Sequence record: NC_100327.1
Strand: one strand, 5' to 3'
Length of the DNA: 64,000 bases
Source: a phage
Every line of letters begins with the position of its first letter. Within the stretch, counting starts at the first letter, position 1. Below the pieces are notes generated by a model. That model saw only the letters and a program-made list of their open reading frames with translations. It was not told the DNA's origin and ran no database searches. Shown here in pieces: positions 1 through 36,704 of the stretch. Position numbers and translations under genes: made by a program.

Positions 1-923
1 AACGAGGCTTCCGGATAGATCTTGACCTCACCACAGACACAGTCCTCACTCAGTGTCATTGTTGCCGGACCATAATATGCACCTACCAGCAGTCCATACT
101 TACCAGCTACATAGCTGAGATCTGCACCACAAGCTTTCAGCATTTCTGCCATAATACTTGCTGGGGCCTCATCCATATCGAACTCGCCATTAATGGTGTA
201 ACGGCGCTCACTGGTTCCGTCTGCGTTTTTTACCGCCTCGTCGCATATGTTGGCAGCCTCCTTGAAGGACTCCCAGTTGATGGTTTCGTCAGGACATTTA
301 AGGTACGTTCTTAAATAGTCTAGGATCACCAAGGCAGCGTTATTGGTGTACACCTCTTTACTGATACGAGGATCATAGCATTTTTTACCAATCTTGACGA
401 GTGTAACGTTTGGCAACCCAAAAGGAAACTTGTTAGGGTCAAACCTGAAGCTGGCACGTAGCCAACTGATCCCTCTACCTATCATGTCAGGTGACCATGA
501 TGGGCAGTGTGTACCCATGAAAGGATCAGATGTTTTTCTGTCGTTATGTAGCTCCCACGATACCAGATCTCCATACGAGGAAATAGGATTACCGTCGATA
601 AGTATATCTTCTATACCTTCCAGAGGGTGATTGGCAAGAACAATAGCACAATGGAGGGTTCTGTCGCTATCCTGCTCCAAAAACGCAAGCAATCCAGATG
701 TGCGTGTCTTTCCATACACTACAGAGCAAGGTGCAGCAGAAGATCTGAGAAGCTTTTGTCTATCTTGCTGACTTCTGTAAGATTTGTTGCCCTCAAAAAT
801 CTTATCCAAAGTTCTGGTGGTCACAGTGTTCAGGCTGTCAGCCAGAGCTGCCTTGGATGCGTTCCAGTCATAACTTGAAGATCTTGCAGAAGCAACGATG
901 TTATCAATCATTGCAATTGGCAT
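1..923 (-). CDS. large tail/baseplate structural protein, N-terminal part (3' end lies beyond the window start)
   Basis: ATG at 923-921 preceded by GGAGG-type RBS; minus-strand frame appears open to position 1 on manual translation; only short, junk-like plus-strand ORFs in the track here; last gene of the tail module. Confidence 0.45.
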   Translation of the reverse strand, partial: MPIAMIDNIVASARSSSYDWNASKAALADSLNTVTTRTLDKIFEGNKSYRSQQDRQKLLRSSAAPCSVVYGKTRTSGLLAFLEQDSDRTLHCAIVLANHPLEGIEDILIDGNPISSYGDLVSWELHNDRKTSDPFMGTHCPSWSPDMIGRGISWLRASFRFDPNKFPFGLPNVTLVKIGKKCYDPRISKEVYTNNAALVILDYLRTYLKCPDETINWESFKEAANICDEAVKNADGTSERRYTINGEFDMDEAPASIMAEMLKACGADLSYVAGKYGLLVGAYYGPATMTLSEDCVCGEVKIYPEAS

Positions 924-1360
924 TAATACCTCCAGACATCAACAATGATAGAATCTTTCATGTCGAACATAAAGACCCCTTTATCACCTTTCGCCCAAAT
1001 CTGGTTGTTCCAGAACACACCAGCGGTGAGCCCGTTCAGACCTTCGAAAATAACAATATCGCCACGCTGAACCTGTTTAGGAGTATCCAGTCGAGTCATA
1101 AAGAGATCAAAAATAGTAGGCAGGTGTGTAGTTTTGAAACGAAGCATGCACCATCTTTTGCTTTCCAACTCTGTTTTATACGTTCCTTCGAAGTTGGAAA
1201 GAAAATCTGTTCCGTATTGGGCATCAACACACTTAGCCGCAAAGGTGCAACAATCGTGGAATCCCCATTCAAAAGGTATGGTGGCCTCTTCGTCAAACAC
1301 TTTCCACAATCTTTCTTGCCAATCCACTAAACGAGGGTGTGTGCTCATTAAACCTCCCAA
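923..1360 (-). CDS. hypothetical tail-associated protein with Cys/His motif (HDCCTF), possibly peptidase-like
   Basis: 145-aa ORF tightly packed in the tail module; stop overlaps the downstream start (TAATG). Confidence 0.35.
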   Translation of the reverse strand: MGGLMSTHPRLVDWQERLWKVFDEEATIPFEWGFHDCCTFAAKCVDAQYGTDFLSNFEGTYKTELESKRWCMLRFKTTHLPTIFDLFMTRLDTPKQVQRGDIVIFEGLNGLTAGVFWNNQIWAKGDKGVFMFDMKDSIIVDVWRY

Positions 1361-1914
1361 ATGATCGGGCGGCTCGCCACCTGATCCACATATTTAAAAA
1401 ATCTGTCATTATCGTTTCTTGAGCTGTGGCTTTCCTCCGTGTACCGATAAGGAAAACCTCTTAACCAACTGTTGAAGATGGAAGAGATGGATATGGACAA
1501 AGCACTATTCTCACCTGTCTGAATAGCCATATCTGTTATAAGGCCGTCAAACAAGCCATTAGTTGTGACAGGTAGACCATTCTCCATAGCGGTAATGTAC
1601 AACGTGGCACGACAACCAGAATACTCCGTCTTCAGCAGATCACCCACATACTTAGGATCAAACCCGTTCAATGTTGCTACCACAGATCCGAAGTTGGTGG
1701 CATCTTTCTCAGACACAGCAGTTAATGTTGCTGATCCCCCTATCCCTATAAAATGTTGCCCCTCAATTACTACAACACCAGTGCCTGAGCACACCCTGAC
1801 AGTTCCTGTCGGTAGCTCCAGCTTTGCAGCAATTAAGATCTCAACACCATCAAGCTCCAGCTTTTCAAGAAATAAATTATCTAATGGCGCTCTGATCATC
1901 TTAGAAATCCTCAA
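1348..1914 (-). CDS. hypothetical virion/tail protein
   Basis: 188-aa ORF overlapping its neighbours in the minus-strand structural operon. Confidence 0.35.
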   Translation of the reverse strand: MRISKMIRAPLDNLFLEKLELDGVEILIAAKLELPTGTVRVCSGTGVVVIEGQHFIGIGGSATLTAVSEKDATNFGSVVATLNGFDPKYVGDLLKTEYSGCRATLYITAMENGLPVTTNGLFDGLITDMAIQTGENSALSISISSIFNSWLRGFPYRYTEESHSSRNDNDRFFKYVDQVASRPIIWEV

Positions 1915-2491
1915 AGAAGTTGATAACTATATTATCCCCTTTTTGCATAGCATCGACTTTTTGCTTAATTTTATAAATATCTCTGATATGAAACCTACCC
2001 TTCGGGGATTGAGTTATTATCTTCATAGTGTCCCCTGCGGCAATAGGTTTTCTAAGTCTTGGAGATATGCTTATAACAGCAGACCCAACACCATCGCTAC
2101 GCACTGGAGCTGTTACCACTTTCAATTCATCATTGACAGATATTTTATCCCCAGCTCTGGCTATGTCTCTGTTTGGCTCCCACCCAACCGTCTTCAAAAA
2201 ATCGTCGTTACCAGTAGGCCCAAGGGCGATTGGCTCATTAGCTGTAACTGAGTGACCGTAAGTTTTAATAAGAAAGATGTTTCCATCTTTATACACCTGA
2301 TCAACAAAGCTCTTAAGCTCTAACAACTGTGACTCGCTGATATTAGAGACCGTCAAAGTGCCTTTCCAATTAGGTGTGGCATAGGTTACTTTTTGCGTTT
2401 TACCTGTAAACGGACTTTTAAACGTAACAATATCTGCCAGCAGCTCCAATCTAATATCTGGAAGGTATCTAGGCCTTTCCCATAAAAACAT
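1901..2491 (-). CDS. hypothetical protein, possibly tail fibre assembly
   Basis: 196-aa ORF immediately downstream of the large fibre gene; position only. Confidence 0.3.
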   Translation of the reverse strand: MFLWERPRYLPDIRLELLADIVTFKSPFTGKTQKVTYATPNWKGTLTVSNISESQLLELKSFVDQVYKDGNIFLIKTYGHSVTANEPIALGPTGNDDFLKTVGWEPNRDIARAGDKISVNDELKVVTAPVRSDGVGSAVISISPRLRKPIAAGDTMKIITQSPKGRFHIRDIYKIKQKVDAMQKGDNIVINFFEDF

Positions 2492-2550
2492 TGTGCCTCC
2501 GGGTTAAACAATCATGATAGTTATTTTACCAGATTTTGAGTTAATACGCA

Positions 2551-2583
2551 ATACAAACAAAAAGCCCCCGCCGAAGCGAGGGC
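2551..2583 (-). terminator. rho-independent terminator candidate after the fibre gene
   Basis: GC hairpin (gcccccgc cgaa gcgagggc) followed on the minus strand by a U-tract (complement of acaaacaaaaa). Confidence 0.5.
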
Positions 2584-2590
2584 AAAACAG

Positions 2591-5500
2591 TTACTTCAAT
2601 TTCTCTTGCAACCCAGTAACAACCTCTGTCAATTTTTTAACCTGCTCCTCAAGGGCGGTTATTTTATCATCCTGTTCCCTGCAAACCTGGACAAGCAAGC
2701 CTGTTACAGCTGCGTAATCCACGCTGTAGAATCTTTCCTCTGTTATCAAAGGAGTTCCATCTTGATCAGGGTTTGGGATTTCCTTTCTTTGCACGAAAGA
2801 GCTAACCGCTTCCGGCAGAGCTTCAAGCACTTCTTGTGCTATAACACCTGCATAAGGCATACCGTTCTCTTTAAGAGTGTAAGTATAACCCTTCATCTTC
2901 CGGATAGCTTCTAACGCATCAGGAATAACAGCTATGTTATCTTTCAGGTCTCTGTCAGAACTCTGATTGACAGATGTGCAATTCACAGCGCCGTTTACAG
3001 AAAGATATCTTGATTTATCCGGCAAGGTACCGCAATGCCATACCCAATTTGATTGAGACTCGTCAAGAACCTTAAACTCTAACACGTTTGGACGATCTCC
3101 TGTGCTGCCGTTACCCCAATAATACATATGGGCGGCATTAGCAGGCATGTTGCCACCGTTATTAGTAACATGGCTTCCAGAAATATACACCTTTAACTCT
3201 GGGGTTGGTATTTCCCCTTCTGGGGTTGTTCCTCCATACCTGAAGCTAACACCATTACCACCTGTTTGGGTCCACGGGCCCCAAGTGAAGACCTGTTTCA
3301 CCATATTCCCATAACGTGTGAATCTATCGCCATGGTAGGTAATATACTCTTGAACACACCCATTACCGTTATTGGCGTTATTTTGCAACACAATAAGTGT
3401 TCCGGCCTCATTTACGGGATAATGACGATCATATGTTGCATCATTATTTGCAGGCTGATGGTAAATACCTTCCCACAATCCGTGATAGGTGTTAAGGTCT
3501 GAAGAACCAAGACCTTGACCCCTGTGTTGCATGGCCTTATTCCAGGGATGGTGATTACCACCTTCTATAGACCTGGTGTATAAGTTACTTTGTCTGCCAG
3601 CAATCTGGAAAGCGTAGTTTCCCGAGAATCCTACAGATAAACCTCCTACAACCATGGTGTCTTGTGGACCGTTAACATTACCAGCCATTATTTTTGACGG
3701 GTTATTAGGCCCGAACTGGTTGTTCCAGTCTCCACCAGTATGACATACAAAACCACCTGGGGCTGAAAAAGTACCATCCTTATTGAAGTTGTAGAATCTA
3801 TGAGCTGTGCCCACAACATCTCGAACAATAACTTGACCAGCCTCTGGAGTAGACCTGAACTCTGCTTGACCTTTAAGGCCAGCACCATTACCGCATTTAG
3901 AGGTAAACGTGCCGTTAGTTAGATCCTCTGTTCCATCTGATGCACACTGGAATCCTGCGTTAGAGAATAGCGCCTTTCTAGGACCACTGTAGCACAAATA
4001 GTCAAAACCGTCAGCCCATAGCTCTACTTTAGGCATGTTCATTTTGCTCATTATCGCATAGCGTTCAGCAGTGCCTACATAGTGCCACTGTGTGCCGCCG
4101 CCAGTGTAGAACCCAGAGGTACCTTTGAAGTCAACAATAGGTCTGGTGTTGGTATTGTTATCTCCGAGAACAGCCAGATTTAAATCTGCTGACTGGAGAG
4201 GTGCAACGAACTTAACACCGTCCTGATTGTCTGTTACAGAGCCAACCTGGTAATCTTGCTCCCTGGTAAACACCTCGACAACATTTCTACTTGCGTATAT
4301 GCTGACAGGGAAAGCACGCGCCTCTGCATAGAAAGCAACATATTCTTGTTTACCCCTTGTTGGAGCAACCATCCCAAGAAGTGCTTTTTCATTCTGGTAG
4401 AAATTTACTACCCCGTAGAAAGAGTCTCCTCTGTCTGTCCAACCACCAGTTCTATAGTGACACTGTAAGGTAGCACAGTTCATAGGGTCATTTCCAGATG
4501 ACGATCTGGTAACTATGGTAATATCAGTACCAGTTGCTGGAGCATAGTACGGATCTGTTCTAACGATGATCGGGTAGTATTTCCCATCTTCCATCCCTGC
4601 GGTTCTTGGCAGTGTTAAGAAGTCTTTCACACCTGCTGCTATAGGAACTTTGAACAGATTCTGAGCATCTGCTAGAGTTGTAGCCCCGGTGCCACCTGCG
4701 GCTTGAGGTAGAGGTTCCCACTTGGCCTTCCGGTTGTTATAAACACCCCATTCCAGAGTGCCGTTACCGGATTCGTCCATCCCGCCATCCCAGATAACCA
4801 TCTTGGCGGCTTTCTTAGATCCCCAGAAGCCTCTTTCTGCTCCTGAACTACGTATCCACTCTCCAAGTCCCCAGTTTGTCAGCTGACCAGTAAGATCCCC
4901 AACCTGCATGTATTTAGGGCAGTCTAATACACCGTCTTCGCGGAAACCCAAATATCTATGAGTTTCAGATCCTTTTGCACCTTTGTGGAGGTGGATTGTC
5001 AACCAAGCCTTATTGTCGTTTCTTACCTCAGAGTAGATCCTATATCCATGCTCAAGGACACCGTCAGCGCTGTATTTGTCCCCGTTAACAATACCGGATG
5101 CTGACTTAACATCAGCAGAACTTTGAGACAGGTAAAGGTGCCCGAAGGTAGGAGAATTTCTAGACCCGAGACCGATGTGCGATCTAAAGGTATCATCGTT
5201 ACGAGGTCTAACCATCGGCTGCCATGCAGTCCACTGATTTGTGTTGGCCTGATAGGTTCTCAAATACCAAACATCTACGTTAGAGAATGGGTAGTATTCC
5301 TGACGACAACCTGTACCGCCGTTAGCATTGTTCTGCCAAACAATCAAGTGACCAGCACCAGAACCTGCAGGGTAACCATTTGCCTCAGTTGCATAAGCAG
5401 TCATCGGCTGGTAGTATACACCATCCTGATTACCAGTCAAGTTATTGATATTGAAATTTGGCTCAAGGGCTGCACGTTGCTTATAGAAAGCACCGATATT

Positions 5501-6403
5501 GATACGGACTCCAGCGGCATCTCTAGCCCCTGTGCCGCCTTGCTCTATAGCAAGAGGTTGCCACGAAGCTGTTTGTTGGTTCCACATACCCCAACGGCCT
5601 GTTGCATCAAGCTGCAAGTACCCTGCCGTATTTAAATCATCTCCAGCACGGATAACTGTTCTTGTTGGGTTGTTTGCCTCTAGGCGTTTAAATTCATCAC
5701 GAAGTGCTATTCTTTTCGTTGTTGCTACACCGTTGGTTACTGCAATGGTGTACATGGCTCCGGTGGTAGCGCCACGGAAAATACCATCAACAGTTGTAGT
5801 ATCACGGCGAGATACCACACCGTTCAGAAATTTTTCACCAGCTGCTACAGAAGGGTAGTTGGTGGTTCTTCCCTCTTCAATAACTGCAGGGCCAACAAAG
5901 TTATCAAGGTGAATAACATCGCCTACGGTGTGCACTGTACCAAAATCTACACGCTGTGCAAGTGCTTTAGCATCGTTAGCTGTCTGAACAGTAACATCCA
6001 TTACATCCTGGACAGACTGCCCTTCGGCTGTCATGATCATAGATGCGCCAATGGTAGATTCCAGCTCCTCCCTTAAGGACGGGTCAGTATATACCATCCA
6101 TGCAGCGTCAGTAATCCCACCATCAGCGTACGGTGAAGACAGTGCAGGAACAGTGTGCGGAAATTCGCCTTTCCAACGCAGGTAGAGGTCTTCCTCTTCG
6201 AAGTAGGCAAAATCCATTGGGCCGTTTAACTTACCACCTTCCTTAAAGGAGATTACATGAGAAACAGTCCCATCCACATGGACAACATCGCCAATTTTTA
6301 CACGACGGGTCAGGTCTGGTTGCTGAACAACCAGGTAATCATCCTCTGTCACTGCGGTAGTGGCAGGAAGAGATTCAATTCTGACAACTTTAATATCAGC
6401 CAT
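2591..6403 (-). CDS. long tail fibre / tailspike with C-terminal intramolecular chaperone (peptidase S74-like) domain
   Basis: 1270 aa; ATG with AGGAGA RBS; C-terminus (SDRDLKDNI...coiled coil) resembles the auto-cleaving chaperone domain of phage fibres; two internal copies of a W.PL...GGTGA / LIV.QNNAN.G.GC.QEY module. Confidence 0.7.
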   Translation of the reverse strand: MADIKVVRIESLPATTAVTEDDYLVVQQPDLTRRVKIGDVVHVDGTVSHVISFKEGGKLNGPMDFAYFEEEDLYLRWKGEFPHTVPALSSPYADGGITDAAWMVYTDPSLREELESTIGASMIMTAEGQSVQDVMDVTVQTANDAKALAQRVDFGTVHTVGDVIHLDNFVGPAVIEEGRTTNYPSVAAGEKFLNGVVSRRDTTTVDGIFRGATTGAMYTIAVTNGVATTKRIALRDEFKRLEANNPTRTVIRAGDDLNTAGYLQLDATGRWGMWNQQTASWQPLAIEQGGTGARDAAGVRINIGAFYKQRAALEPNFNINNLTGNQDGVYYQPMTAYATEANGYPAGSGAGHLIVWQNNANGGTGCRQEYYPFSNVDVWYLRTYQANTNQWTAWQPMVRPRNDDTFRSHIGLGSRNSPTFGHLYLSQSSADVKSASGIVNGDKYSADGVLEHGYRIYSEVRNDNKAWLTIHLHKGAKGSETHRYLGFREDGVLDCPKYMQVGDLTGQLTNWGLGEWIRSSGAERGFWGSKKAAKMVIWDGGMDESGNGTLEWGVYNNRKAKWEPLPQAAGGTGATTLADAQNLFKVPIAAGVKDFLTLPRTAGMEDGKYYPIIVRTDPYYAPATGTDITIVTRSSSGNDPMNCATLQCHYRTGGWTDRGDSFYGVVNFYQNEKALLGMVAPTRGKQEYVAFYAEARAFPVSIYASRNVVEVFTREQDYQVGSVTDNQDGVKFVAPLQSADLNLAVLGDNNTNTRPIVDFKGTSGFYTGGGTQWHYVGTAERYAIMSKMNMPKVELWADGFDYLCYSGPRKALFSNAGFQCASDGTEDLTNGTFTSKCGNGAGLKGQAEFRSTPEAGQVIVRDVVGTAHRFYNFNKDGTFSAPGGFVCHTGGDWNNQFGPNNPSKIMAGNVNGPQDTMVVGGLSVGFSGNYAFQIAGRQSNLYTRSIEGGNHHPWNKAMQHRGQGLGSSDLNTYHGLWEGIYHQPANNDATYDRHYPVNEAGTLIVLQNNANNGNGCVQEYITYHGDRFTRYGNMVKQVFTWGPWTQTGGNGVSFRYGGTTPEGEIPTPELKVYISGSHVTNNGGNMPANAAHMYYWGNGSTGDRPNVLEFKVLDESQSNWVWHCGTLPDKSRYLSVNGAVNCTSVNQSSDRDLKDNIAVIPDALEAIRKMKGYTYTLKENGMPYAGVIAQEVLEALPEAVSSFVQRKEIPNPDQDGTPLITEERFYSVDYAAVTGLLVQVCREQDDKITALEEQVKKLTEVVTGLQEKLK

Positions 6404-6438
6404 TCTTTCTCCTGAAAGGGGGCAAACAGCCCCCTATG

Positions 6439-9036
6439 TTAAAGGTACAATCCACGGTATTGAGCATAAAGGCCCAGACCGCGAAGGATTTCGCCAGAGT
6501 GATAGCCAACCGGATCAGAAACTGCCCAGCAGCCGTTTAAAATATTATCCCCATTAATGAAGTGGTGCTTTTGCAGTAGCTTCACACAGGCTTCTACAAC
6601 AATATCTATTTGAGGTATTGTCTCTGAATACCCGCACAGACCTAGCCAGCAGCAACCTGCAAGCCATTCACCTACCACCCACATCCTGTCTCCTCTGTCC
6701 TGATAAGAATATCCCCCAGAGGTGTTAAAGTCTGTAGGCAGATTTCCTGAATGAGATGACTGGAATCTGTTGAGGAACCATGCCCATTTCTGGCAGAACA
6801 GGAATAGTCTTTCATCAACAGGTTCTTTATGTTTCTTGAGCTCATATATTGTGCGGCACGCAGCAACAAAAGATCTTGACTGGAGCTTAGAGTTATCTAC
6901 CATCTCCCACCAACCAGTCAACCCTTCATTGCCTCTTTGCCATACATAACGTGAGGCAACTGGACCCTCTGTCTTAAATGTATTATTATACCAGACTTGA
7001 GCGTCATACAGAAAGCCTATTGTATTTGACAATCTATGGCGATCTATGTTTTCTGCACCCATGCAGTAGACTGCTGGGTATTGCATGCCAGGGTAGGGCC
7101 AATTTGGCTTTTCCTCTAAGAGATAGTTTTCCTTATCTATCACCTTTCCGGCAGGGAACACACCCGGTGTGTGCCTGTATGCACCTTGCTTGTAGTTTCT
7201 GACATAGCAATCTCCAACCTTAGCGGTTGATTCTGTCTTGCTTGCCATCCATACACTAAACCAGATTAGATAAGCATCCCTATCTGCAATATAGAATTGC
7301 GGCAGCGTGTTGACGCAATATAGATCAAACAAGCCATTACCTATCTGCCTGTCGCTTAGGCTGAAATCCACAGAGGTGAGCCCCTTAGGATTAGCAAAGA
7401 AAGGTTTAATCTCTTCTTCGGTGTGATGAGGTTGTGTCGGATCTAGTTTGAAATCTCCTAGAGTAAGAGTTTCTGTTATCCATTGTCCATTAGTGGCATA
7501 TAGATCAGCATACCATAACCACCTGTCTTTGTCAAGAAATTTGACCCTTACCATCTCATCATCTGATCGATAAGTTACTGAGTTTAAAGAAATCTCTCTT
7601 CCAAAATTGAAAGTTACTTTACCTCTTGCTATATTACAACGGGTGAAGTTGTCAGAGTGGTTGTAAATGTCGGTATCATACTGCATACTGACACTAGCGC
7701 CACCGCTCACGGCAATGTTTTCCTCTTTAGGTAAGAGATACGGATTACCGTCTTTACCAACCACCTCTACGAAATCGGTAACCTTGGCAACTATTTCTGT
7801 TACCTCTGCCCCTCCAAAAGGAACCCCTATCCTGTACTGTTTTTTGTTATTGTTGCCATCATTAAGGATGAAATGTGGCTGGAACAGAACCCCTTCTCCT
7901 CCGAAATTCATAACAATTTCAGCATCTCTGCCTATTTTGTATGTAGTCCCTTTTTGGATTATTTCGCAAGGCTGGCGTGCGTTCATTCTAAAATTGATAT
8001 ACCCGTCACTGTCCCTGCTCATGACAGGAACTGTTCCTGCAACAAGACAAGTACCATCTGTAAACGGTGCCTTAATCAACGTGGTCTTTCTAAACAGTTT
8101 GTCGTAGGCGTTTATATCACTGAAATTAAGCAACTTGTTGTAAGACTGTTCAAACGCGGTGTAATACTTTTCCTCACCTGTTAAGGTGTAGAGTTGATAA
8201 CAAGCGTCACACCACATCTCTTCCCCGTCCAACTCTGGGGCTTGATTATCTGCAACCACGTTTATAGGATTTACAATTACAGGCGATCCTGCAGGTATCA
8301 CCGATCCACCCTGCTCTTGGGGTAATCTTACACAATAGGTCACCTTGTGGCTGCCTGTAACACCCTTATCTTGTAATTGGATTGTGCCGAACTCTACAGA
8401 CGTATGACCACTGTCGGCTATGCTACCGTTAGCCCAATAGCGGTTACCATCCCATGCTATATACCACTCAACCCACCAACTTAATCCAGATGTTGTCCAA
8501 TCTGGGTTAGCATCTGTGCCGCCGTAAACATCAGCGTCTACAGTGTTTCTTCCTAACACACCGTTATATGCTTGGAAGGCCTTGTCCAGGTATTCTCCCC
8601 ATGTCGGAGATCCAGCTGGGATTTTTCCTCTACCGTTAGTAAAAGACACCACCACATCTTTAAACCCACCATGTGATGGGACCCCGTCTGTGGATAGAGG
8701 GTAGTGGGACAATCTTTGCATTTTACTTTCTACAGCATATGCGCCCAGAAGATGACTATTGTAAGCTTCCCAAGCATCTTTTGCCCTATCCAGATAGAAA
8801 TCGCTTTTCGATGCCCTGTATGCTTCAATGTATCCCAGAATCAACACAGCTTGGGACTCATGCATTGCCCAATCATTATTTATCTTATTACCTGCCCACC
8901 CTGCAGCTATAAGACCATCAGGGTTTACTAGCTTATTTTGTGTAGGGGTGTTGGTAATACCTGTGTTGTTATCGAGGCACTTCCTGTGCCCCTCAATCAT
9001 CTGAAATACGTTATCAATGTTGTGTTGAATACGCAT
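6439..9036 (-). CDS. large tailspike-like protein, possible polysaccharide-degrading enzyme
   Basis: 865-aa ORF between two fibre-like genes; lacks the N-terminal anchor motif of its neighbours; enzymatic assignment is a guess. Confidence 0.4.
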   Translation of the reverse strand: MRIQHNIDNVFQMIEGHRKCLDNNTGITNTPTQNKLVNPDGLIAAGWAGNKINNDWAMHESQAVLILGYIEAYRASKSDFYLDRAKDAWEAYNSHLLGAYAVESKMQRLSHYPLSTDGVPSHGGFKDVVVSFTNGRGKIPAGSPTWGEYLDKAFQAYNGVLGRNTVDADVYGGTDANPDWTTSGLSWWVEWYIAWDGNRYWANGSIADSGHTSVEFGTIQLQDKGVTGSHKVTYCVRLPQEQGGSVIPAGSPVIVNPINVVADNQAPELDGEEMWCDACYQLYTLTGEEKYYTAFEQSYNKLLNFSDINAYDKLFRKTTLIKAPFTDGTCLVAGTVPVMSRDSDGYINFRMNARQPCEIIQKGTTYKIGRDAEIVMNFGGEGVLFQPHFILNDGNNNKKQYRIGVPFGGAEVTEIVAKVTDFVEVVGKDGNPYLLPKEENIAVSGGASVSMQYDTDIYNHSDNFTRCNIARGKVTFNFGREISLNSVTYRSDDEMVRVKFLDKDRWLWYADLYATNGQWITETLTLGDFKLDPTQPHHTEEEIKPFFANPKGLTSVDFSLSDRQIGNGLFDLYCVNTLPQFYIADRDAYLIWFSVWMASKTESTAKVGDCYVRNYKQGAYRHTPGVFPAGKVIDKENYLLEEKPNWPYPGMQYPAVYCMGAENIDRHRLSNTIGFLYDAQVWYNNTFKTEGPVASRYVWQRGNEGLTGWWEMVDNSKLQSRSFVAACRTIYELKKHKEPVDERLFLFCQKWAWFLNRFQSSHSGNLPTDFNTSGGYSYQDRGDRMWVVGEWLAGCCWLGLCGYSETIPQIDIVVEACVKLLQKHHFINGDNILNGCWAVSDPVGYHSGEILRGLGLYAQYRGLYL

Positions 9037-9037
9037 C

Positions 9038-9706
9038 TTAGATAGCTCCTGCGATAATCAGTGCCCCGTACCAAGTTAACCCGTTGTCGTAGGTTTCCAA
9101 CTTGAAAATGTCTGTTGCACCAGCTGTAAATGTTAGGATAGGATCTCTTCCGTAGGACCATTTAACATTATCAGGCCAATAGACTTTGTTGCCGCCAGAG
9201 GTCTGAGTAATGCATACGGTTATAGTTCTCGCCACCCCTTCAAGACCTTCTGTTTGATTTTCAAAAGAGATTGTGGTATTTGAAGTTAGTCGAACCTTAA
9301 AGGTATCCGCAACTTCAAGATCCATATCAAGCTGACCACCGATAGATCCGTAATCAACTATTCTGCCAGAAGAAGTTGCAGCAAGCTCACCAAAAACAGA
9401 CCAGGCATTTGCAGACACGCCCCCAGCACCCTCTACAGTGGAGTCTGGTAGGATTATTTTAGGATAATCCCCGTTCCACGTGTAGTAGCGCTTAGTCTCT
9501 GGGTCATAAGCAAAGTCCTTCTTGCTCTTAAGATAACCACCCTCTGTGAAATAGACTATCTTAGTAATACTAAGATCGTTGACAACATCGTCAATCTTAG
9601 CCTTTCTTGTCCCATCAGTCTGGTTGACAACCAAGAAGTCATCACTCAGGACTGTTTCTGCATCTTCAAGATCTGGAATTGGTATTGTAGGATAAGCTAC
9701 AGCCAT
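9038..9706 (-). CDS. tail fibre N-terminal anchor/adaptor-like protein
   Basis: N-terminus (DDFLVVNQTDGTRKAKIDDVV...FTEGG...DFAY) is paralogous to the N-terminus of the 2591..6403 fibre; stop abuts the start of the 6439..9036 gene. Confidence 0.45.
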   Translation of the reverse strand: MAVAYPTIPIPDLEDAETVLSDDFLVVNQTDGTRKAKIDDVVNDLSITKIVYFTEGGYLKSKKDFAYDPETKRYYTWNGDYPKIILPDSTVEGAGGVSANAWSVFGELAATSSGRIVDYGSIGGQLDMDLEVADTFKVRLTSNTTISFENQTEGLEGVARTITVCITQTSGGNKVYWPDNVKWSYGRDPILTFTAGATDIFKLETYDNGLTWYGALIIAGAI

Positions 9707-9715
9707 GATTTCTCC

Positions 9716-10432
9716 TTAGTTAACATCAATAGCACGACCAGACTGGTTGGCAATAGCCTCATCATTGGAGGTAGCAATAACACCAGAGTATTCGCGCTCA
9801 TCTGGAGCAAGCGTCCAGGTATTGCGGTTAATGGTTTGTTCTGCCTCAGTCATCAGCAGATCTTTATCCTGAGTCAACAGAGAGCCTACAGGGATCGGGT
9901 TTTCCATCTCAGGACCAGCATACTGGTTCCACCATGTGGCATCTCCGGTTCTAGGTAATCTGAAGTTGATCAGGTAGTACAGTTTATTAGCCCACTTAAT
10001 CCAACCCTCATCATCACAGAGAGAGGTTGTCCCAGAATCAGGTTGTGGGTAGGTGAACTGATCAAGACCTACGAAAGCCAGCCTTACAATCTCGTTCTCT
10101 TTGGTAACAACCTCAAAGAACGCTTGGTATGTTCTCGATCTTCGGTCCATGGTAGACTGGAAGTTTATGATGTTTAGCACATCCGGCTCTTGTCTTGCCA
10201 CTTCCATAATCTTGTTATCAAGAACAGTCTTCATGACCTTCTTACTGAGAAAGTCCATATAAGGGAAGCCAAACAGTTCGTCAAAGTACCAGCTCCCCTT
10301 CCACGTATTAAACCTCATCCACAAGCGCTGGCGCAGACTTACCTGGTTTGAATCTATCAACTCAAGACCTTTGTCTATCGCCAAATCGCCTGTCTGTGGG
10401 TCCATCAATATATCACTATAAAGCGTAGCCAT
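9716..10432 (-). CDS. hypothetical baseplate protein
   Basis: 238-aa ORF in the baseplate region; position only. Confidence 0.3.
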   Translation of the reverse strand: MATLYSDILMDPQTGDLAIDKGLELIDSNQVSLRQRLWMRFNTWKGSWYFDELFGFPYMDFLSKKVMKTVLDNKIMEVARQEPDVLNIINFQSTMDRRSRTYQAFFEVVTKENEIVRLAFVGLDQFTYPQPDSGTTSLCDDEGWIKWANKLYYLINFRLPRTGDATWWNQYAGPEMENPIPVGSLLTQDKDLLMTEAEQTINRNTWTLAPDEREYSGVIATSNDEAIANQSGRAIDVN

Positions 10433-10444
10433 GAAAGCCCTCTA

Positions 10445-11122
10445 TTAGTGCGGTCCACTTGTCTCGCCATCAGGGCAAGAGTGGGTATGACCTTTATATT
10501 CTGCATAGAATGAATCCAAATCCACGCCAGCAGCAGTTATAATTCTACCAGATGGGTCTATTGTAGCACCATTCATTCTGATATTCCCATCCACAGCAGC
10601 TCGCAAATTGGCAGCCCCGTTAGTGAAAGAAAACTCCCCGCTGCTGTCGCACCGTAATGTCCCACCAGGTGTTTGAAGCTCAAAATCGCCAGAAGGTGTC
10701 AGTTTAAAATAAACCCTATCATTCCATAACTCTACATTATCAGGATCGATCTGTAAGGCGTTTGAGTCTGAATGAACAGAGGTGATTGCCCACCCTGGAA
10801 ACAGGCCGTGAGTTTGTTGATCGTCGTTATTGTTTTCATTTCTCTCTGAAAACTGCAATCCTACAACATCTCCAGCCTTAATAGGGAGTGTTAACCTTGC
10901 CTTTCCGCTGTTTGCAGACATCACCTGAATTGGAACGTCATAGATAAGAGGGTATCTCTCCACATCTCCGTCATCAAACGTAGTTTCAGCTATTGGCTGC
11001 ACGGCTGCAGAAGGTATACTGTAGTCAACACTGACAACTCTGGCCCTGATACTGGTGTGGTAGTCCCTCATTATTTTTTCTATAAAGGATCTTACAGCAG
11101 CATCTTTCCTATTTATTGCCAT
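10445..11122 (-). CDS. hypothetical baseplate/spike-like protein
   Basis: 225-aa ORF with C-terminal HTHS..PDG motif; comparable in size to myovirus spike proteins. Confidence 0.3.
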   Translation of the reverse strand: MAINRKDAAVRSFIEKIMRDYHTSIRARVVSVDYSIPSAAVQPIAETTFDDGDVERYPLIYDVPIQVMSANSGKARLTLPIKAGDVVGLQFSERNENNNDDQQTHGLFPGWAITSVHSDSNALQIDPDNVELWNDRVYFKLTPSGDFELQTPGGTLRCDSSGEFSFTNGAANLRAAVDGNIRMNGATIDPSGRIITAAGVDLDSFYAEYKGHTHSCPDGETSGPH

Positions 11123-13507: not shown

Positions 13508-15844
13508 TTACCAAAGGTCGGTAGACATGAAGTTGATATCTTTATTGTTCTCCCACTCAAGTTTTGCATCAAATATTTTGTTAAACTCACCCTCATCTAT
13601 TGAAATCGTGATTTTCCCATCACTGATCTCTAAAGGTAGCATTTCCATAGTTCTTAATTGAGAAGCAAAACCAGGGCCACCCGGCAACGGAAGAGTCCCG
13701 CCCGGTAAGGTGTCCAAAGGATTAACAAACCCGTTACCTCCCGATATGATATCTTTGCGAATCATATCGCTGATAGTATCCAGCTGCTGATTTCTTTCAC
13801 TTAGTGGGTTGTAACGGTCATTAAATAATTCCCCGGCGCTTAGTATTGTACCGATAATGCCCAGCTTACCGAGCAGACCAACTTTGCCACCAGGTGTCTT
13901 GAGGCCACCTCCACCTTTTCCTGCCGGAGCTCCACCACCAGATCCTTCTGTAGTAGCGGCACCCGCTGCTCCAGCTGCACCTCTTAGAGAGTTAAGGAAT
14001 TTAAAGGTTTTTACAAGCATGGATGCCATGACAAAACCTTTTGTTAGGGCGTTGACTACCAGCATGATGGCAGCAGCAAACCCTGCCCATTTAGCATAGC
14101 TAAAGGTGTCATGAAGCTCTTCAGAATATTCCTTCGTCTTAGCTGTTATGAATCCCCATTTAATCCCCCATTCAAGGAAAAACATGCGGATCTTGACTAT
14201 AGTGTTGTTTAGTTCACCAACTACCCAGTTAAGGCCTCTCACAAACCCGCTAACAAAATCACCAGAGGCATCCCACACAAATTGCAGAGTCTCACCCGTG
14301 CGGATCAGTGTATAATAGAACTCTGTTAGTTCGTCAGACCAACGGGTGAACAGTTTCTGACGAGTCAGTTCGATGAAGGTTTTCAGTCTGTTTTCTGCCA
14401 GCACGTTAGACTTCTGCATTCTTTCATAACCAGCTGCAGATGCCTCGTTCATGTACTTAGCCACATACTTCATGATCTTGGCTGTTTTAACCTCACCTTT
14501 CTTCATCATGTCCATGAACTGATCCATGGAGAGTTCAGAAAGACCAAAAGCCTCTTTGGTGGCCTTGATAAAAGGTTCGTATGCACCAGGCAATGCTTCA
14601 GCAAGTTGTTGCTTCAGTTCTTCGGACATTACTTGTCCTTTCCCAAGCATCTGTTGGATTGCCATAATACCGCGCTGGTATTTTACCTCATCGGCACCAT
14701 AAGCAGCAGCATACTGTGAGTATGCAGAAAACAGCTCATGCACTTCCTGATTTGTCATCTGGTTTTTGGCGTTTACCGACATCTGGGCGTAACCTTGAAG
14801 ACCAGATTTGAGATCAAAACCAAGACGCATAGCCTCTTGCTGGACAAACGCAACCTCACTGTTGGCTTTGTTTGGATCTCCAGTAACAGCAGTAAGAGCA
14901 GCACTTGCCCCCTCCATCATGTGACCGGATCTGTTAACCGCAGCAAATCCAGAAAAAGCTGTATACGCAGCTGTTGCATTAATAACAGATCTACGTAAGT
15001 CTCTCATGGCATCGCCTAGTGTAAGCGTTTGGCTGGTGGCGCTTTTAAACCCAGACTGCAGCGCTGACAGGTGGGCGTTAAAGGTTGACTTCTTCATCTC
15101 CCCGCGAGCAAACCTGGACTCTAACTCTGAGTATCCTGGCAAGCTTCCACGGAATCCGGCCCCATACTTGGCAGAAAGTCTTATCGCGGAGTTGTAGAGG
15201 TGGGTTCTCCTTGCCTCACGATCCGACATAAGCCTATTATCCATACCAGCTTTACTGTCTCTTCTTAGCTGTCTATGATAACGATTCATAGCGGCTGTCT
15301 GAGCTTTCACAAGGTTAGGGTCGGAAGCTACACCACCCATATTAGGGTTACCGGGGATATATTTGAAAGCTTTGGCATTAGCCAGAACTCTTGCCTTAGG
15401 TGCCTTATAACCGCCGTAAGACACTGGTGCAGATTTGGCAGCCTTTTTGGCCTCTTTAGCTTGCTGCTGGTAGAACTTACGCATCCTAGCCATTTCTGGA
15501 TTTTTAGCGGTAAGATTACCTACAGCTTGTTTACGTCTCGCATTCTCCCTACGTTCTATTGCAGCCCTTACTGCAGCCTCTTTCTTGGCCTGTGCTACGC
15601 TCTCTCTGTGCAGTTTAGCATTTGCCTGAGATTGCTGTCTGGCAACCCTCTGCATTGTCTGCTGGGTTTTAACAGCTACCGCCTGCCATCTACTCATGGG
15701 GTTGGCTGAGTTAAAATCCTCGCCCAGTTTCCTGAACTCCCTCCCAATACTGCGAATTTTCTCTACAGCTTTTTTGTAGGAGGAGTTCTCTATCTCAAAG
15801 CCAATCTTGTTGACTGTTGTGGCAACTATTTTGTTTGTAGCCAT
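13508..15844 (-). CDS. tail tape measure protein
   Basis: 778 aa, downstream of a chaperone pair with a frameshift site; long helical/charged regions and a Gly/Ala-rich block (AAGAAGAATTEGSGGGAPAGKGGGG). Confidence 0.7.
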   Translation of the reverse strand: MATNKIVATTVNKIGFEIENSSYKKAVEKIRSIGREFRKLGEDFNSANPMSRWQAVAVKTQQTMQRVARQQSQANAKLHRESVAQAKKEAAVRAAIERRENARRKQAVGNLTAKNPEMARMRKFYQQQAKEAKKAAKSAPVSYGGYKAPKARVLANAKAFKYIPGNPNMGGVASDPNLVKAQTAAMNRYHRQLRRDSKAGMDNRLMSDREARRTHLYNSAIRLSAKYGAGFRGSLPGYSELESRFARGEMKKSTFNAHLSALQSGFKSATSQTLTLGDAMRDLRRSVINATAAYTAFSGFAAVNRSGHMMEGASAALTAVTGDPNKANSEVAFVQQEAMRLGFDLKSGLQGYAQMSVNAKNQMTNQEVHELFSAYSQYAAAYGADEVKYQRGIMAIQQMLGKGQVMSEELKQQLAEALPGAYEPFIKATKEAFGLSELSMDQFMDMMKKGEVKTAKIMKYVAKYMNEASAAGYERMQKSNVLAENRLKTFIELTRQKLFTRWSDELTEFYYTLIRTGETLQFVWDASGDFVSGFVRGLNWVVGELNNTIVKIRMFFLEWGIKWGFITAKTKEYSEELHDTFSYAKWAGFAAAIMLVVNALTKGFVMASMLVKTFKFLNSLRGAAGAAGAATTEGSGGGAPAGKGGGGLKTPGGKVGLLGKLGIIGTILSAGELFNDRYNPLSERNQQLDTISDMIRKDIISGGNGFVNPLDTLPGGTLPLPGGPGFASQLRTMEMLPLEISDGKITISIDEGEFNKIFDAKLEWENNKDINFMSTDLW

Positions 15845-34695: not shown

Positions 34696-35250
34696 TTACT
34701 CCCTGCTGTCAATATCAAAACTCATTGCAATACGGTATGCCTCTTCTAATGGTAAGAGTCTCCCCCACACATCCCAACCGACATCAAGCTGCCTGCCAAA
34801 CAACTGTTGTGTGGTTCCGTGAGCATGACCGAACAGTTGGACTGATCCGTGAGGCTTTCTGTTCCACTTTGCAAACTGGTAATGGCTCATACAGATCAAA
34901 TTCTTGTTGTGGCGAAGCTCGTAATAATCTACAACCTCATGACCGAACTCTTTCATAATTCTGACAGTCGTCCTTGTGTCATGGTTGCCACGAACAAGAA
35001 TAATATGTCCGTTCAACATATTTAGAATATCTGGAAGTAAGTTGTTGATATTCTTATCATTAGTGCACGCAATATCTCCCAAGTGGAACACAGTGTCTGC
35101 AGGTGACACAACAGAGTTCCACTCGGCGATGATTCCCGCATTCATACTGTCAAGATTGTGATCATACTGAGATCTGTGTTTTTGACATGAATCAAACTCC
35201 ATGACCCGCTGGTGGAGAAAGTGTGTGTCGCTTGTTACAAAGTATTTCAT
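34696..35250 (-). CDS. calcineurin-like metallophosphoesterase (putative 2',3'/3'-phosphatase partner of the kinase)
   Basis: Motifs DTHF, GDIA and GNHD; start placed at MKYFVTSDTHF (ATG 35250, GAGGA RBS) rather than the track start, which overlaps the kinase gene. Confidence 0.6.
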   Translation of the reverse strand: MKYFVTSDTHFLHQRVMEFDSCQKHRSQYDHNLDSMNAGIIAEWNSVVSPADTVFHLGDIACTNDKNINNLLPDILNMLNGHIILVRGNHDTRTTVRIMKEFGHEVVDYYELRHNKNLICMSHYQFAKWNRKPHGSVQLFGHAHGTTQQLFGRQLDVGWDVWGRLLPLEEAYRIAMSFDIDSRE

Positions 35251-35257
35251 ACATTCC

Positions 35258-35668
35258 TCATTTAAGTTTAATGCAGTTTTTAAGCTGGCGTTCCATACGA
35301 TCCACAACCTTGTCTGGAACATCATGAATGCTTTTATTACCGTGGCGGTTTTCAACCACGATCACGGTATAACTATACCCATGACTGATTGCCATGTCAA
35401 CATATTCCTGCACATGTTTTTCTTTTGTAAACGTATTACTTACCACGATACGGTCGTATCCCATACGCATCATATCTTCTACGTTATCTTTGCACCATTT
35501 TGCTGCGAGTGTTACTTTACTTGCATCCCAGTTGTAATTGCCGTCATCGTCATACCAGAACATGTCGTTCTCAAAATGTGGATACAGACCCTCTAAAGAT
35601 AGCGCATTTGCCAGTGTTGATTTGCCAGACCCTGGTAGACCACGCACGATATATAGCATTTTAGACAT
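35258..35668 (-). CDS. polynucleotide 5'-kinase (P-loop kinase domain, T4 Pnk N-terminal-like)
   Basis: Start at ATG 35668 with GGAGGG RBS; Walker A GLPGSGKST; size and motifs resemble the kinase half of T4 Pnk. Confidence 0.6.
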   Translation of the reverse strand: MSKMLYIVRGLPGSGKSTLANALSLEGLYPHFENDMFWYDDDGNYNWDASKVTLAAKWCKDNVEDMMRMGYDRIVVSNTFTKEKHVQEYVDMAISHGYSYTVIVVENRHGNKSIHDVPDKVVDRMERQLKNCIKLK

Positions 35669-35768
35669 AGTGACCCTCCGTTTTAATTTCAACGGTAGTA
35701 TACCTAACTGTTTTGTTAATTTCAAGTGTTGACACTAGGTTATTTGTGTGGCAGGATAGACTGACAAA

Positions 35769-36704
35769 ATGACAAATGAGGAACATATAATGAAGTATTT
35801 TAATGCAGACGACCTAGTTGACAAAGGTCTTGTAACCAGTAGGTATTACCCAGATCTCGGGTTAAAGATCTATAAATATGCTAGAAAAGTATTTTACAAC
35901 AATTTATGGCATTTGTCCCCTCGTTTACTGGAGTGCCGAGGCATTGTTGTAGGTAATGAAGGAAATGTTGTGGCATGGCCCTTCACAAAAGTGTTTAACT
36001 TGGGAGAAAACTCCACCAACCTGCCTGACAATAAGCTTGTGACTGCGGTAGAGAAAAAGAACGGATTCCTTGGTGTGGTATCATCTCATAAAGGTGACCT
36101 ATTGTTCTCAACAACCGGGTCTCTTGATTCTCCATATTGTAACCTTGCAAAGGAAACCATCCAAGAGCAATGTGGTAATTTAGATCTTATCAAGAAGGTT
36201 ATGGGCAATGAAAACATGACATTCATGTTTGAAATTTGTCACCCTTCAGATCCGCATATTGTTCAAGAAGACCATGGCGCATATTTGATAGGTTGCAGAT
36301 ATAATGATTCTGGAATAATGCTACCAGAAGCCGCTTTAGATGGGATTGCCAAATACCTTGGTGCAAAACGTCCTCACACTGTGCGTGAAATTCCGTTCAG
36401 CTATGCAAAAGAGTTAGCTGCAGAAACAAGAGGTGAAGGATATATGATTCGTAAGCCTTACTACCCTTATGATCTGCAGTTGAAGATCAAGTCTCCATAC
36501 TATCTGGCACGAAAGGCCGTAATGAGGGGTAAAGCTTGGAAGATTTGGGATGATGATATCTTTAAACGTGTTGACGAAGAGTTTTACGGCATGGTAAACT
36601 TCATTCGTAACAACTACACAGAGGATGTATGGAACTGCCTCCTGGAGCAGGAACGCCGTGAGATACTTGACTGCTATTTCCACAACGAGGACTATATGCA
36701 ATGA
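35769..36704 (+). CDS. RNA ligase 1 (T4 RnlA-like)
   Basis: Conserved blocks shared with T4 Rnl1 as I recall them (LLECRGIVV, KVFNLGEN, nucleotidyl-transferase lysine motif EKKNGFLG); sits opposite the kinase/phosphatase genes. Confidence 0.6.
   Translation: MTNEEHIMKYFNADDLVDKGLVTSRYYPDLGLKIYKYARKVFYNNLWHLSPRLLECRGIVVGNEGNVVAWPFTKVFNLGENSTNLPDNKLVTAVEKKNGFLGVVSSHKGDLLFSTTGSLDSPYCNLAKETIQEQCGNLDLIKKVMGNENMTFMFEICHPSDPHIVQEDHGAYLIGCRYNDSGIMLPEAALDGIAKYLGAKRPHTVREIPFSYAKELAAETRGEGYMIRKPYYPYDLQLKIKSPYYLARKAVMRGKAWKIWDDDIFKRVDEEFYGMVNFIRNNYTEDVWNCLLEQERREILDCYFHNEDYMQ

Follow-up and report, generated by a model that had tools for sequence, protein, structure and literature searches.

The 64,000-nucleotide (nt) stretch of phage DNA analyzed here (sequence record NC_100327.1), called the window below in its full length, carries between positions 2591 and 9706 three minus-strand genes whose products may form two host-surface appendages of the virion. 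In transcription order they encode a protein of 222 amino acids (aa), a protein of 865 aa, and a tail fibre of 1270 aa, and their open reading frames lie where an earlier note, made from the sequence alone, had drawn them. The 7.4-kb region that holds them is 99.5% identical to Escherichia phage vb_EcoM_bov10K2 and 97 to 99% identical to more than 100 Vequintavirus (rV5-like) myophages, which identifies the window by sequence as coming from a Vequintavirus, an rV5-like E. coli myophage. The homologues in rV5 are gp43, gp42, and gp41, respectively, and published mass spectrometry found all three in virions of that phage (PMC3606486). The genes and their parts are as follows.

9038..9706, minus strand: open reading frame of the 222-aa protein, the proposed adaptor; homologue of rV5 gp43, phi92 gp140, and GAP31 gp221
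9563..9706, minus strand: plug of the proposed adaptor, residues 1-48, from a hidden Markov model (HMM) of the plug and alignment
9392..9556, minus strand: neck of the proposed adaptor, PF18668, residues 51-105 (Pfam 41 bits; PDB sequence matches 9occ_G, 8x8m, and CBA120 TSP3, TSP4, and TSP1)
9041..9346, minus strand: C-terminal beta-sandwich of the 222-aa protein, residues about 121-222; putative platform on which the 865-aa protein docks
9034..9050, minus strand: coupled gene junction, with ribosome-binding site (RBS) AGGAG at 9050-9046, stop codon TAA at 9040-9038, one base (G), and start codon ATG at 9036-9034
6439..9036, minus strand: 865-aa virion protein, homologue of rV5 gp42 and phi92 gp141; predicted (alpha/alpha)6 glycoside-hydrolase-like fold with beta-rich insertions
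2591..6403, minus strand: open reading frame of the 1270-aa lateral tail fibre, homologue of rV5 gp41; phrog_6578 'tail fiber protein' over its full length
6266..6403, minus strand: plug of the fibre, residues 1-46, paralogous to the plug of the 222-aa protein
5993..6268, minus strand: neck of the fibre, residues about 46-137 (PF18668, 39 bits, and a 'GAS.I...G.SVQ' continuation)
2804..2959, minus strand: Peptidase_S74 intramolecular chaperone of the fibre, residues 1149-1200 (PF13884, 52.1 bits against a gathering threshold of 22)

A plug and neck common to two proteins

The N-termini of the 1270-aa and 222-aa proteins are clearly related. BLASTP aligned residues 7 to 105 of the fibre with residues 8 to 105 of the 222-aa protein at 38% identity (38/99; 70.9 bits, E = 3e-18), and the motif by which the earlier note had recognized the similarity is present in both (DDYLVVQQPDLTRRVKIGDVV...FKEGGKL...DFAY versus DDFLVVNQTDGTRKAKIDDVV...FTEGGYL...DFAY). 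When all open reading frames of the window, together with 11.6 kb of upstream sequence from a relative, were searched with phmmer, either N-terminus retrieved only these two proteins (E about 4e-18), the next best match having an E value above 0.2. Likewise, tblastn placed the shared N-terminus at exactly two sites per rV5-like genome. Both proteins score above the 25-bit gathering threshold of PF18668 (Tail_spike_N, the TSP1/Gp66 N-terminal domain), the fibre with 39.0 bits over residues 46 to 103 and the 222-aa protein with 41.0 bits over residues 51 to 105, in each case inside the first 140 residues. The similarity proposed earlier is therefore real and statistically significant, and with all three rV5 homologues present in virions, neither outcome that the note had named as refuting its view was seen. 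We found no statement of gp41/gp43 paralogy in the literature; in the rV5 genome paper, HHpred had found the N-terminus of gp43 similar to the particle-binding domain of the P22 tailspike (PMC3606486).

The shared block consists of two parts, a plug of about 45 residues (residues 1 to 48) with the pattern I.(I/V)SDLP....V...D(F/Y)LV.DQ.D.T(R/K)K, and a tailspike neck spanning residues about 50 to 105, or to about 137 in the fibre. The neck is homologous to the N-terminal neck of the solved tailspikes CBA120 TSP1, TSP3, and TSP4, 9occ gp13, 9d84, and 9lna, where the matched region comprises residues about 70 to 190, ahead of the catalytic domains. With the fibre neck, the PDB matches were 9occ_G (E = 6e-12), 9d84, 9lna, 9d80, and CBA120 TSP4, TSP3, and TSP1. 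The plug HMM matched only the paralogous fibre, GAP31_221 and GAP31_223 from Seunavirus (the latter with E = 5e-15), and phi92 gp140 and gp143, the endosialidase gp143 being found with E = 3.6e-9 among eight phi92 tail proteins. In the phi92 locus (L065), the plug HMM and alignment place the plugs at 7265-7441 (gp143) and 1739-1915 (gp140), and among themselves the plugs are 24 to 50% identical. In each of the three genera, two proteins begin with the plug: the small protein and a single further one, whose distal part varies, being a T5 lateral-tail-fibre-like fibre here, a colanidase-like protein annotated as colanic-acid degrading in Seunavirus, and an endosialidase (gp143) in phi92. Its presence, in three genera, at the head of proteins that differ widely further on marks it, as judged from these alignments, with the signature of a conserved virion-attachment module. 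The earlier reading of the block as an anchor domain is thus supported, by the homology of the neck to solved tailspikes and by the occurrence of the plug on differing proteins.

The cassette of small protein and predicted enzyme

The 222-aa protein is 99.5% identical to rV5 gp043, and its best family match is phrog_7760, annotated 'tail fiber protein'. AlphaFold2 (AF2) was confident only for its C-terminal beta-sandwich, with a predicted local distance difference test score of 80 to 87; the AF2 alignments for the single-chain models of both the 222-aa and 865-aa proteins were shallow and the models only moderate because homologue searches gave few sequences. The beta-sandwich, referred to here as the docking domain (the last ~100 residues), is shared at 30 to 45% identity, with 13 invariant positions, across small proteins with unrelated N-termini. 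In phages of Escherichia, Vibrio, Pseudomonas, Erwinia, Aeromonas, and Cronobacter, its invariant residues are Q, G, N, W, W, L, D, D, G, W, and G. Within Vequintavirus the domain is about 99% conserved, and the 222-aa and 865-aa proteins as a whole are almost invariant, unlike the allelic fibre. Such near-invariance is more in keeping with a structural interface than with a variable tip for receptor binding.

Sequence and profile searches of the PDB with the docking domain gave no match. Its modeled fold may resemble branching domains of the T4 gp10 and CBA120 XD type, a likeness that is suggestive but not decisive and too weak to speak of homology. Two candidate relationships were rejected. 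An hhalign comparison of the docking profile with SP6p38, made for the C-terminal part of the SP6 adaptor, gave a probability of 0.1% (E = 0.59), and the C-terminus of phiTE_241 (PF26209, Phage_phiTE_241_C) gave an hhalign probability of 0.3% and no HMM match. One distant homologue, P0026, does carry a precomputed match to PF26209. The P0026 gene lies on a 437-kb soil metagenome contig (L051, 6001-8684), where it overlaps a 714-aa open reading frame by 4 nt; genes of glycolysis (TIM, PGK, and pyruvate kinase) lie on both sides of the pair, which is apparently not part of a prophage. In the wider superfamily, the domain is mostly C-terminal in proteins of 130 to 380 aa and sometimes tandem; among proteins P0029-P0171, up to 7 tandem copies occur in proteins of 1000 to 2000 aa, and the copy of Pfam used holds no model for it.

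The 865-aa protein lacks the shared N-terminal block, as had been claimed: it has no Pfam match, and its N-terminus matches nothing else in the window. Its family shows no recognizable anchor in any lineage, though it occurs on myo-, sipho-, and podovirus tails. In the AF2 model the protein is an (alpha/alpha)6 toroid, interrupted by large beta-rich insertions at residues about 120 to 240 and 330 to 615. Weak profile matches agree with an (alpha/alpha)6 glycoside-hydrolase-like fold of the clan GH-L/GH-M-like type, and PDB searches gave marginal matches to epimerases only. GH76 was matched by 2 of 16 homologues (E = 0.0016), and family-level sequence membership in a glycoside hydrolase family was not found. 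Residues E60 and D270 are invariant in the 16 homologues. The phi92 homologue gp141 has been annotated as a glycosidase (PMC5380687). ORF17 of S144, presumed by us from its position and description to correspond to the 865-aa protein, was described as a "hydrolase, neither spike nor fibre" (PMC7432712). We infer that the 865-aa protein is a glycanase, predicted to be active. Alpha/alpha-toroid depolymerases are rare among annotated phage depolymerases, making up about 1% in DepoScope (PMC11326577).

The small gene was directly followed, on the same strand, by a gene of the 865-aa family in all 56 informative loci, of which 50 came from GenBank phages and IMG/VR contigs and the additional 2 and 4 from metagenomic contigs. 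Across loci, the first aligned residue of the 865-aa homologue lies -7 to +47 nt from the stop of the small gene. In the window, the stop codon TAA (9040-9038), one base, and the start codon ATG (9036-9034) follow one another, so that the 865-aa start lies two positions past the last base of the stop, exactly the 2-nt offset reported earlier, and the AGGAG RBS of the 865-aa gene is inside the 3' end of the 222-aa gene. Abutting or overlapping junctions are also the usual form in other lineages. The cassette is found in Vequintavirinae, Stephanstirmvirinae (phi92 gp140-gp141), myophages of Rosemountvirus and Kolesnikvirus, Asteriusvirus and the jumbo phage 121Q, Grimontviridae podophages (7-11-like), a Pseudomonas siphophage in which the pair follows the J protein, and Autographiviridae. 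phiTE, checked through its cryo-electron microscopy (cryo-EM) paper for a resolved homologue, lacks the cassette.

From lineage to lineage, the N-terminus of the small protein is exchanged while the docking domain and the enzyme are kept. Among 27 nonredundant cassettes, the median identity was 34% for the docking domain versus 9% for the N-terminal parts. In two members of the Autographiviridae, Vibrio phage vB_VpaP_G1 and Aeromonas phage PhiAC505, the N-terminus of the small protein is PF03906, the T7 gp17 fibre N-terminal domain (E = 2e-7 and 8e-11), and the gene stands where SP6 and K1-5 have their adaptor gene, between the internal virion proteins and holin/terminase. An exchangeable N-terminal anchor, a fixed docking domain, and an anchor-less cargo, together with gene coupling and presence in virions, support a modular adaptor. 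The adjacency in 56/56 loci and the N-terminus swaps thus lend indirect but strong support to the earlier suggestion that the 222-aa protein is the adaptor of the 865-aa protein. Where that note had spoken of two receptor-binding proteins with a common anchor, the sharing of the anchor stands, but the 222-aa protein is better called an adaptor than a receptor-binding protein.

Operon setting and the fibre gene

From position 1 to about 35 kb of the window, every gene lies on the minus strand, and a sign change of both GC skew and AT skew at about 35000-36000 marks the switch of transcription direction. Gene order was assigned by comparison with the annotated relatives RudolfGeigy and rV5. The remaining features of the unit, in the direction of transcription, are listed here; the genes for tube initiator, plug, and hub, also on the minus strand, lie between those for tape measure and spike, the last directly after the hub.

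13508-15844, minus strand: tape measure, the first of the genes considered
10445-11122, minus strand: spike
9716-10432, minus strand: gp25-like sheath initiator, after the spike and before the 222-aa gene
6418..6434, minus strand: hairpin rich in GC (GGGGGC-TGTTT-GCCCCC), within the 35 nt that separate the 865-aa gene from the 1270-aa gene; TTTC and an RBS come next
2564..2583, minus strand: intrinsic terminator directly 3' of the fibre gene, with an 8-bp stem (7 G-C pairs) followed by TTTTTGTTTG

The 222-aa gene (rV5 gp43), the 865-aa gene (gp42), and the 1270-aa fibre gene (gp41) come after the sheath initiator. The hairpin at 6418..6434 may be an attenuator or an mRNA-stability element setting the ratio of two appendages. 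The strong terminator at 2564..2583, as predicted from its stem and tail, closes the transcription unit, and a lambda/PY54-like tail-tip module (gp40-gp37) follows.

Different Vequintavirus genomes carry different alleles of the fibre, which in its distal part is related to the lateral fibres of T5-like and T1-like phages. The rV5 paper reported an HHpred match of the fibre C-terminus to the C-terminal domain of the K1F endosialidase, 3GW6 (PMC3606486). Phages APECc02, JLBYU08, and Gotham match residues 1 to 1047 only and differ over the C-terminal ~220 aa (window 2591-3260), so in them the distal tip and chaperone have been exchanged.

The tail-tip module occupies window positions 923-2491 (minus strand) and continues past the left window end (locus L001, 8685-14092). 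Its products are a 196-aa Dit-like protein (phrog_1302), a protein of 188 aa classed as 'tail protein' (phrog_2048), a DUF6950 protein of 145 aa, and a J-like protein of 1279 aa bearing FN3 domains. Although the phage has a contractile tail and a hub and spike of its own, its fibre locus holds this module. The phi92-like and Seunavirus relatives are without it. About 20 records labeled 'Campylobacter phage' with host Campylobacter jejuni (including MG065647, MG065658, MG065661, MG065662, MG065676, and MG065682) are at least 97% identical to rV5-like coliphages at window 2400-9800; their host labels look doubtful.

Proposed arrangement, alternatives, and known systems

The arrangement that we favor, with a probability of roughly 0.6, draws on the observed homology, domain architecture, synteny, and fold and on the published detection of the proteins in virions. 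The last three genes of the baseplate operon would encode two host-surface appendages joined to the virion via the same N-terminal plug, which presumably binds the baseplate wedge. One appendage would be the 1270-aa fibre, with plug, tailspike-type neck, and then a long shaft with a receptor-binding part, akin to the lateral fibres of T5-like phages, its C-terminal S74 chaperone being cleaved off. The other would consist of the 222-aa protein (plug, neck, and conserved ~100-residue beta-sandwich) and the 865-aa protein, the beta-sandwich binding and holding the anchor-less product of the next, translationally coupled gene. The cassette would be portable, in that other phages keep docking domain and enzyme and replace the adaptor N-terminus to fit their own tail. 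Within this arrangement, the anchoring role of the plug is on firmer ground than the contact between adaptor and cargo. The earlier note had also raised multiple receptor specificities; for rV5/phi92-like phages, which bear several receptor-binding proteins, this was already established (PMC8594841).

A broader version can be offered only tentatively, namely that the docking domain is a general portable module hanging a probably monomeric (alpha/alpha)6 glycanase on a tail of any morphotype and that gp43-gp42 (phi92 gp140-gp141) is 'fibre II'. In the 2026 cryo-EM study of phi92, the tip of fibre I was ascribed by inference to gp143, fibre II arises at the fibre I base and was not assigned, and a gp140-gp141 complex was not considered (PMC13450770). 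Our proposal that gp43-gp42 (gp140-gp141) is one lateral appendage not yet assigned is apparently new in the searchable literature. The same appears to hold for a plug that, across three genera, an adaptor has in common with a single swappable receptor-binding protein, and for a widespread cassette of adaptor and (alpha/alpha)6 enzyme.

Several observations weigh against the favored arrangement. The docking domain superfamily is very large (23,788 representatives at E<=1e-3) and essentially unannotated, and the domain is mostly C-terminal in fibre-like proteins, where receptor-binding tips also sit. Two distant members have no 865-aa partner, the small gene of L051 being followed by the unrelated 714-aa open reading frame and that of L058 by no partner, so that the pairing belongs to a subfamily and not to the whole superfamily. 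In phi92, the density of fibre II was reportedly not fitted by gp140 alone (PMC13450770). A search for natural fusions of adaptor and enzyme among 163 domain-bearing proteins and the retrieved 865-aa homologues gave none, an uninformative result, and in a mirror-tree comparison the pairwise identities of docking domain and enzyme correlated weakly (Spearman 0.14) and were not used as evidence.

Some of these observations would suit an alternative in which the 222-aa protein stands by itself as a short fibre or decoration with a lectin-like, ligand-binding tip, the 865-aa enzyme attaches alone, and adjacency reflects co-inheritance and co-expression. The docking domain ends at most 15 aa from the C-terminus in 87% of cases, in fibre-like proteins, among them some that carry shafts of collagen or PTR type and some with the domain in tandem; the partnerless members point the same way, and some structural neighbors in BFVD bear the annotation tail fibre or 'major tropism determinant'. 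However, residues invariant across phages of so many hosts, with ~99% conservation in Vequintavirus, are atypical of a receptor-binding tip, the enzyme has no recognizable anchor of its own, and the adjacency persists in 56/56 loci despite complete replacement of the small protein's N-terminus. We consider this alternative unlikely. An assembly or folding role, in which the 222-aa protein chiefly serves the 865-aa protein in the manner of tail-fibre assembly proteins and is not a structural bridge, would account for tight translational coupling and invariable adjacency. Yet a 222-aa homologue is found in virions, its gene lies upstream and not downstream, and a soluble chaperone would have no need of a plug and neck or of a T7 fibre N-terminal domain, which makes such a role very improbable.

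The two plugs might, alternatively, occupy nonequivalent sites, either as a serial branch with one plug protein on the other, as for the CBA120 TSP proteins and G7C gp66/gp63.1, or with the fibre sitting on the lambda-like gp37-gp40 module. Fibre II of phi92 arises from the fibre I base and not from a separate wedge site (PMC13450770), PF18668-type necks are present in branched CBA120 and G7C-type complexes, and the tail-tip module comes directly after the fibre gene, all of which agree with such a scheme. Against this, homologous plugs at 24 to 50% identity more simply imply homologous sockets, and phi92-like and Seunavirus phages own the plug pair without any lambda-like module, leaving nonequivalent sites with a rather low probability.

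Phages of the rV5/phi92 type are among the most commonly isolated, broad-host-range coliphages, and a common plug on two appendages with an adaptor-held enzyme would give them a testable wiring diagram, with the plug on the adaptor and on one exchangeable receptor-binding protein and the glycosidase-fold protein carried by the adaptor. Movement of the cassette among myo-, sipho-, and podophages by exchange of the adaptor N-terminus would be relevant to engineering phages with added glycan-degrading activities. The 865-aa family also flags a rare class of non-beta-helix virion enzymes largely missed by depolymerase predictors.

Among characterized phages, the SP6, K1E, and K1-5 adaptors (SP6p38, 'gp37') and the KP34-type anchor protein tether separately encoded tailspikes, as is proposed here for the 222-aa protein and its cargo. 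The SP6/K1-5 protein was reportedly identified as an adaptor by Leiman et al. in 2007. It is also summarized as such in more recent work (PMC13450770). The likeness, as far as domain content tells, lies in a small virion protein whose N-terminal domain attaches it to the tail (PF03906 in the case of SP6p38) and whose C-terminal part holds, or here would hold, an anchor-less enzyme. However, no sequence similarity was detectable between the SP6 adaptor and the docking domain, the predicted cargo here is (alpha/alpha)6-fold and encoded immediately downstream whereas that of SP6 is a beta-helix tailspike encoded elsewhere, and the cassette here also serves myo- and siphoviruses. In the absence of sequence homology, the system would be analogous to the SP6 type and not a member of that protein family. 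More generally, the architecture would work like the adaptor or branch receptor-binding complexes of SP6/K1-5, KP34, G7C, and CBA120 while standing, by sequence, outside their adaptor families. In CBA120 (Ackermannviridae), the branching domains are within tailspikes TSP1-4, whereas here the docking role would fall to the separate 222-aa protein. Bacterial (alpha/alpha)6 hydrolases and epimerases (GH105, GH88, GH76, GH8, GH48, and AGE-type epimerases) differ from the 865-aa protein in that the latter is a virion component whose predicted toroid is split by insertions. The closest parallel is the orthologous phi92 locus, with gp139 as the sheath initiator, gp140 as the small protein, and gp141 as the member of the 865-aa family (E = 0). 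The multivalent adsorption apparatus of phi92 comprises gp140-gp143, gp150, and gp151, and the plug is on gp140 and gp143 as it is on gp43 and gp41 here. Unlike the 222-aa protein, gp140 (157 aa) has the plug without the PF18668 neck, and the plug-bearing receptor-binding protein of phi92 is an endosialidase, where the phage studied here has a T5-like fibre.

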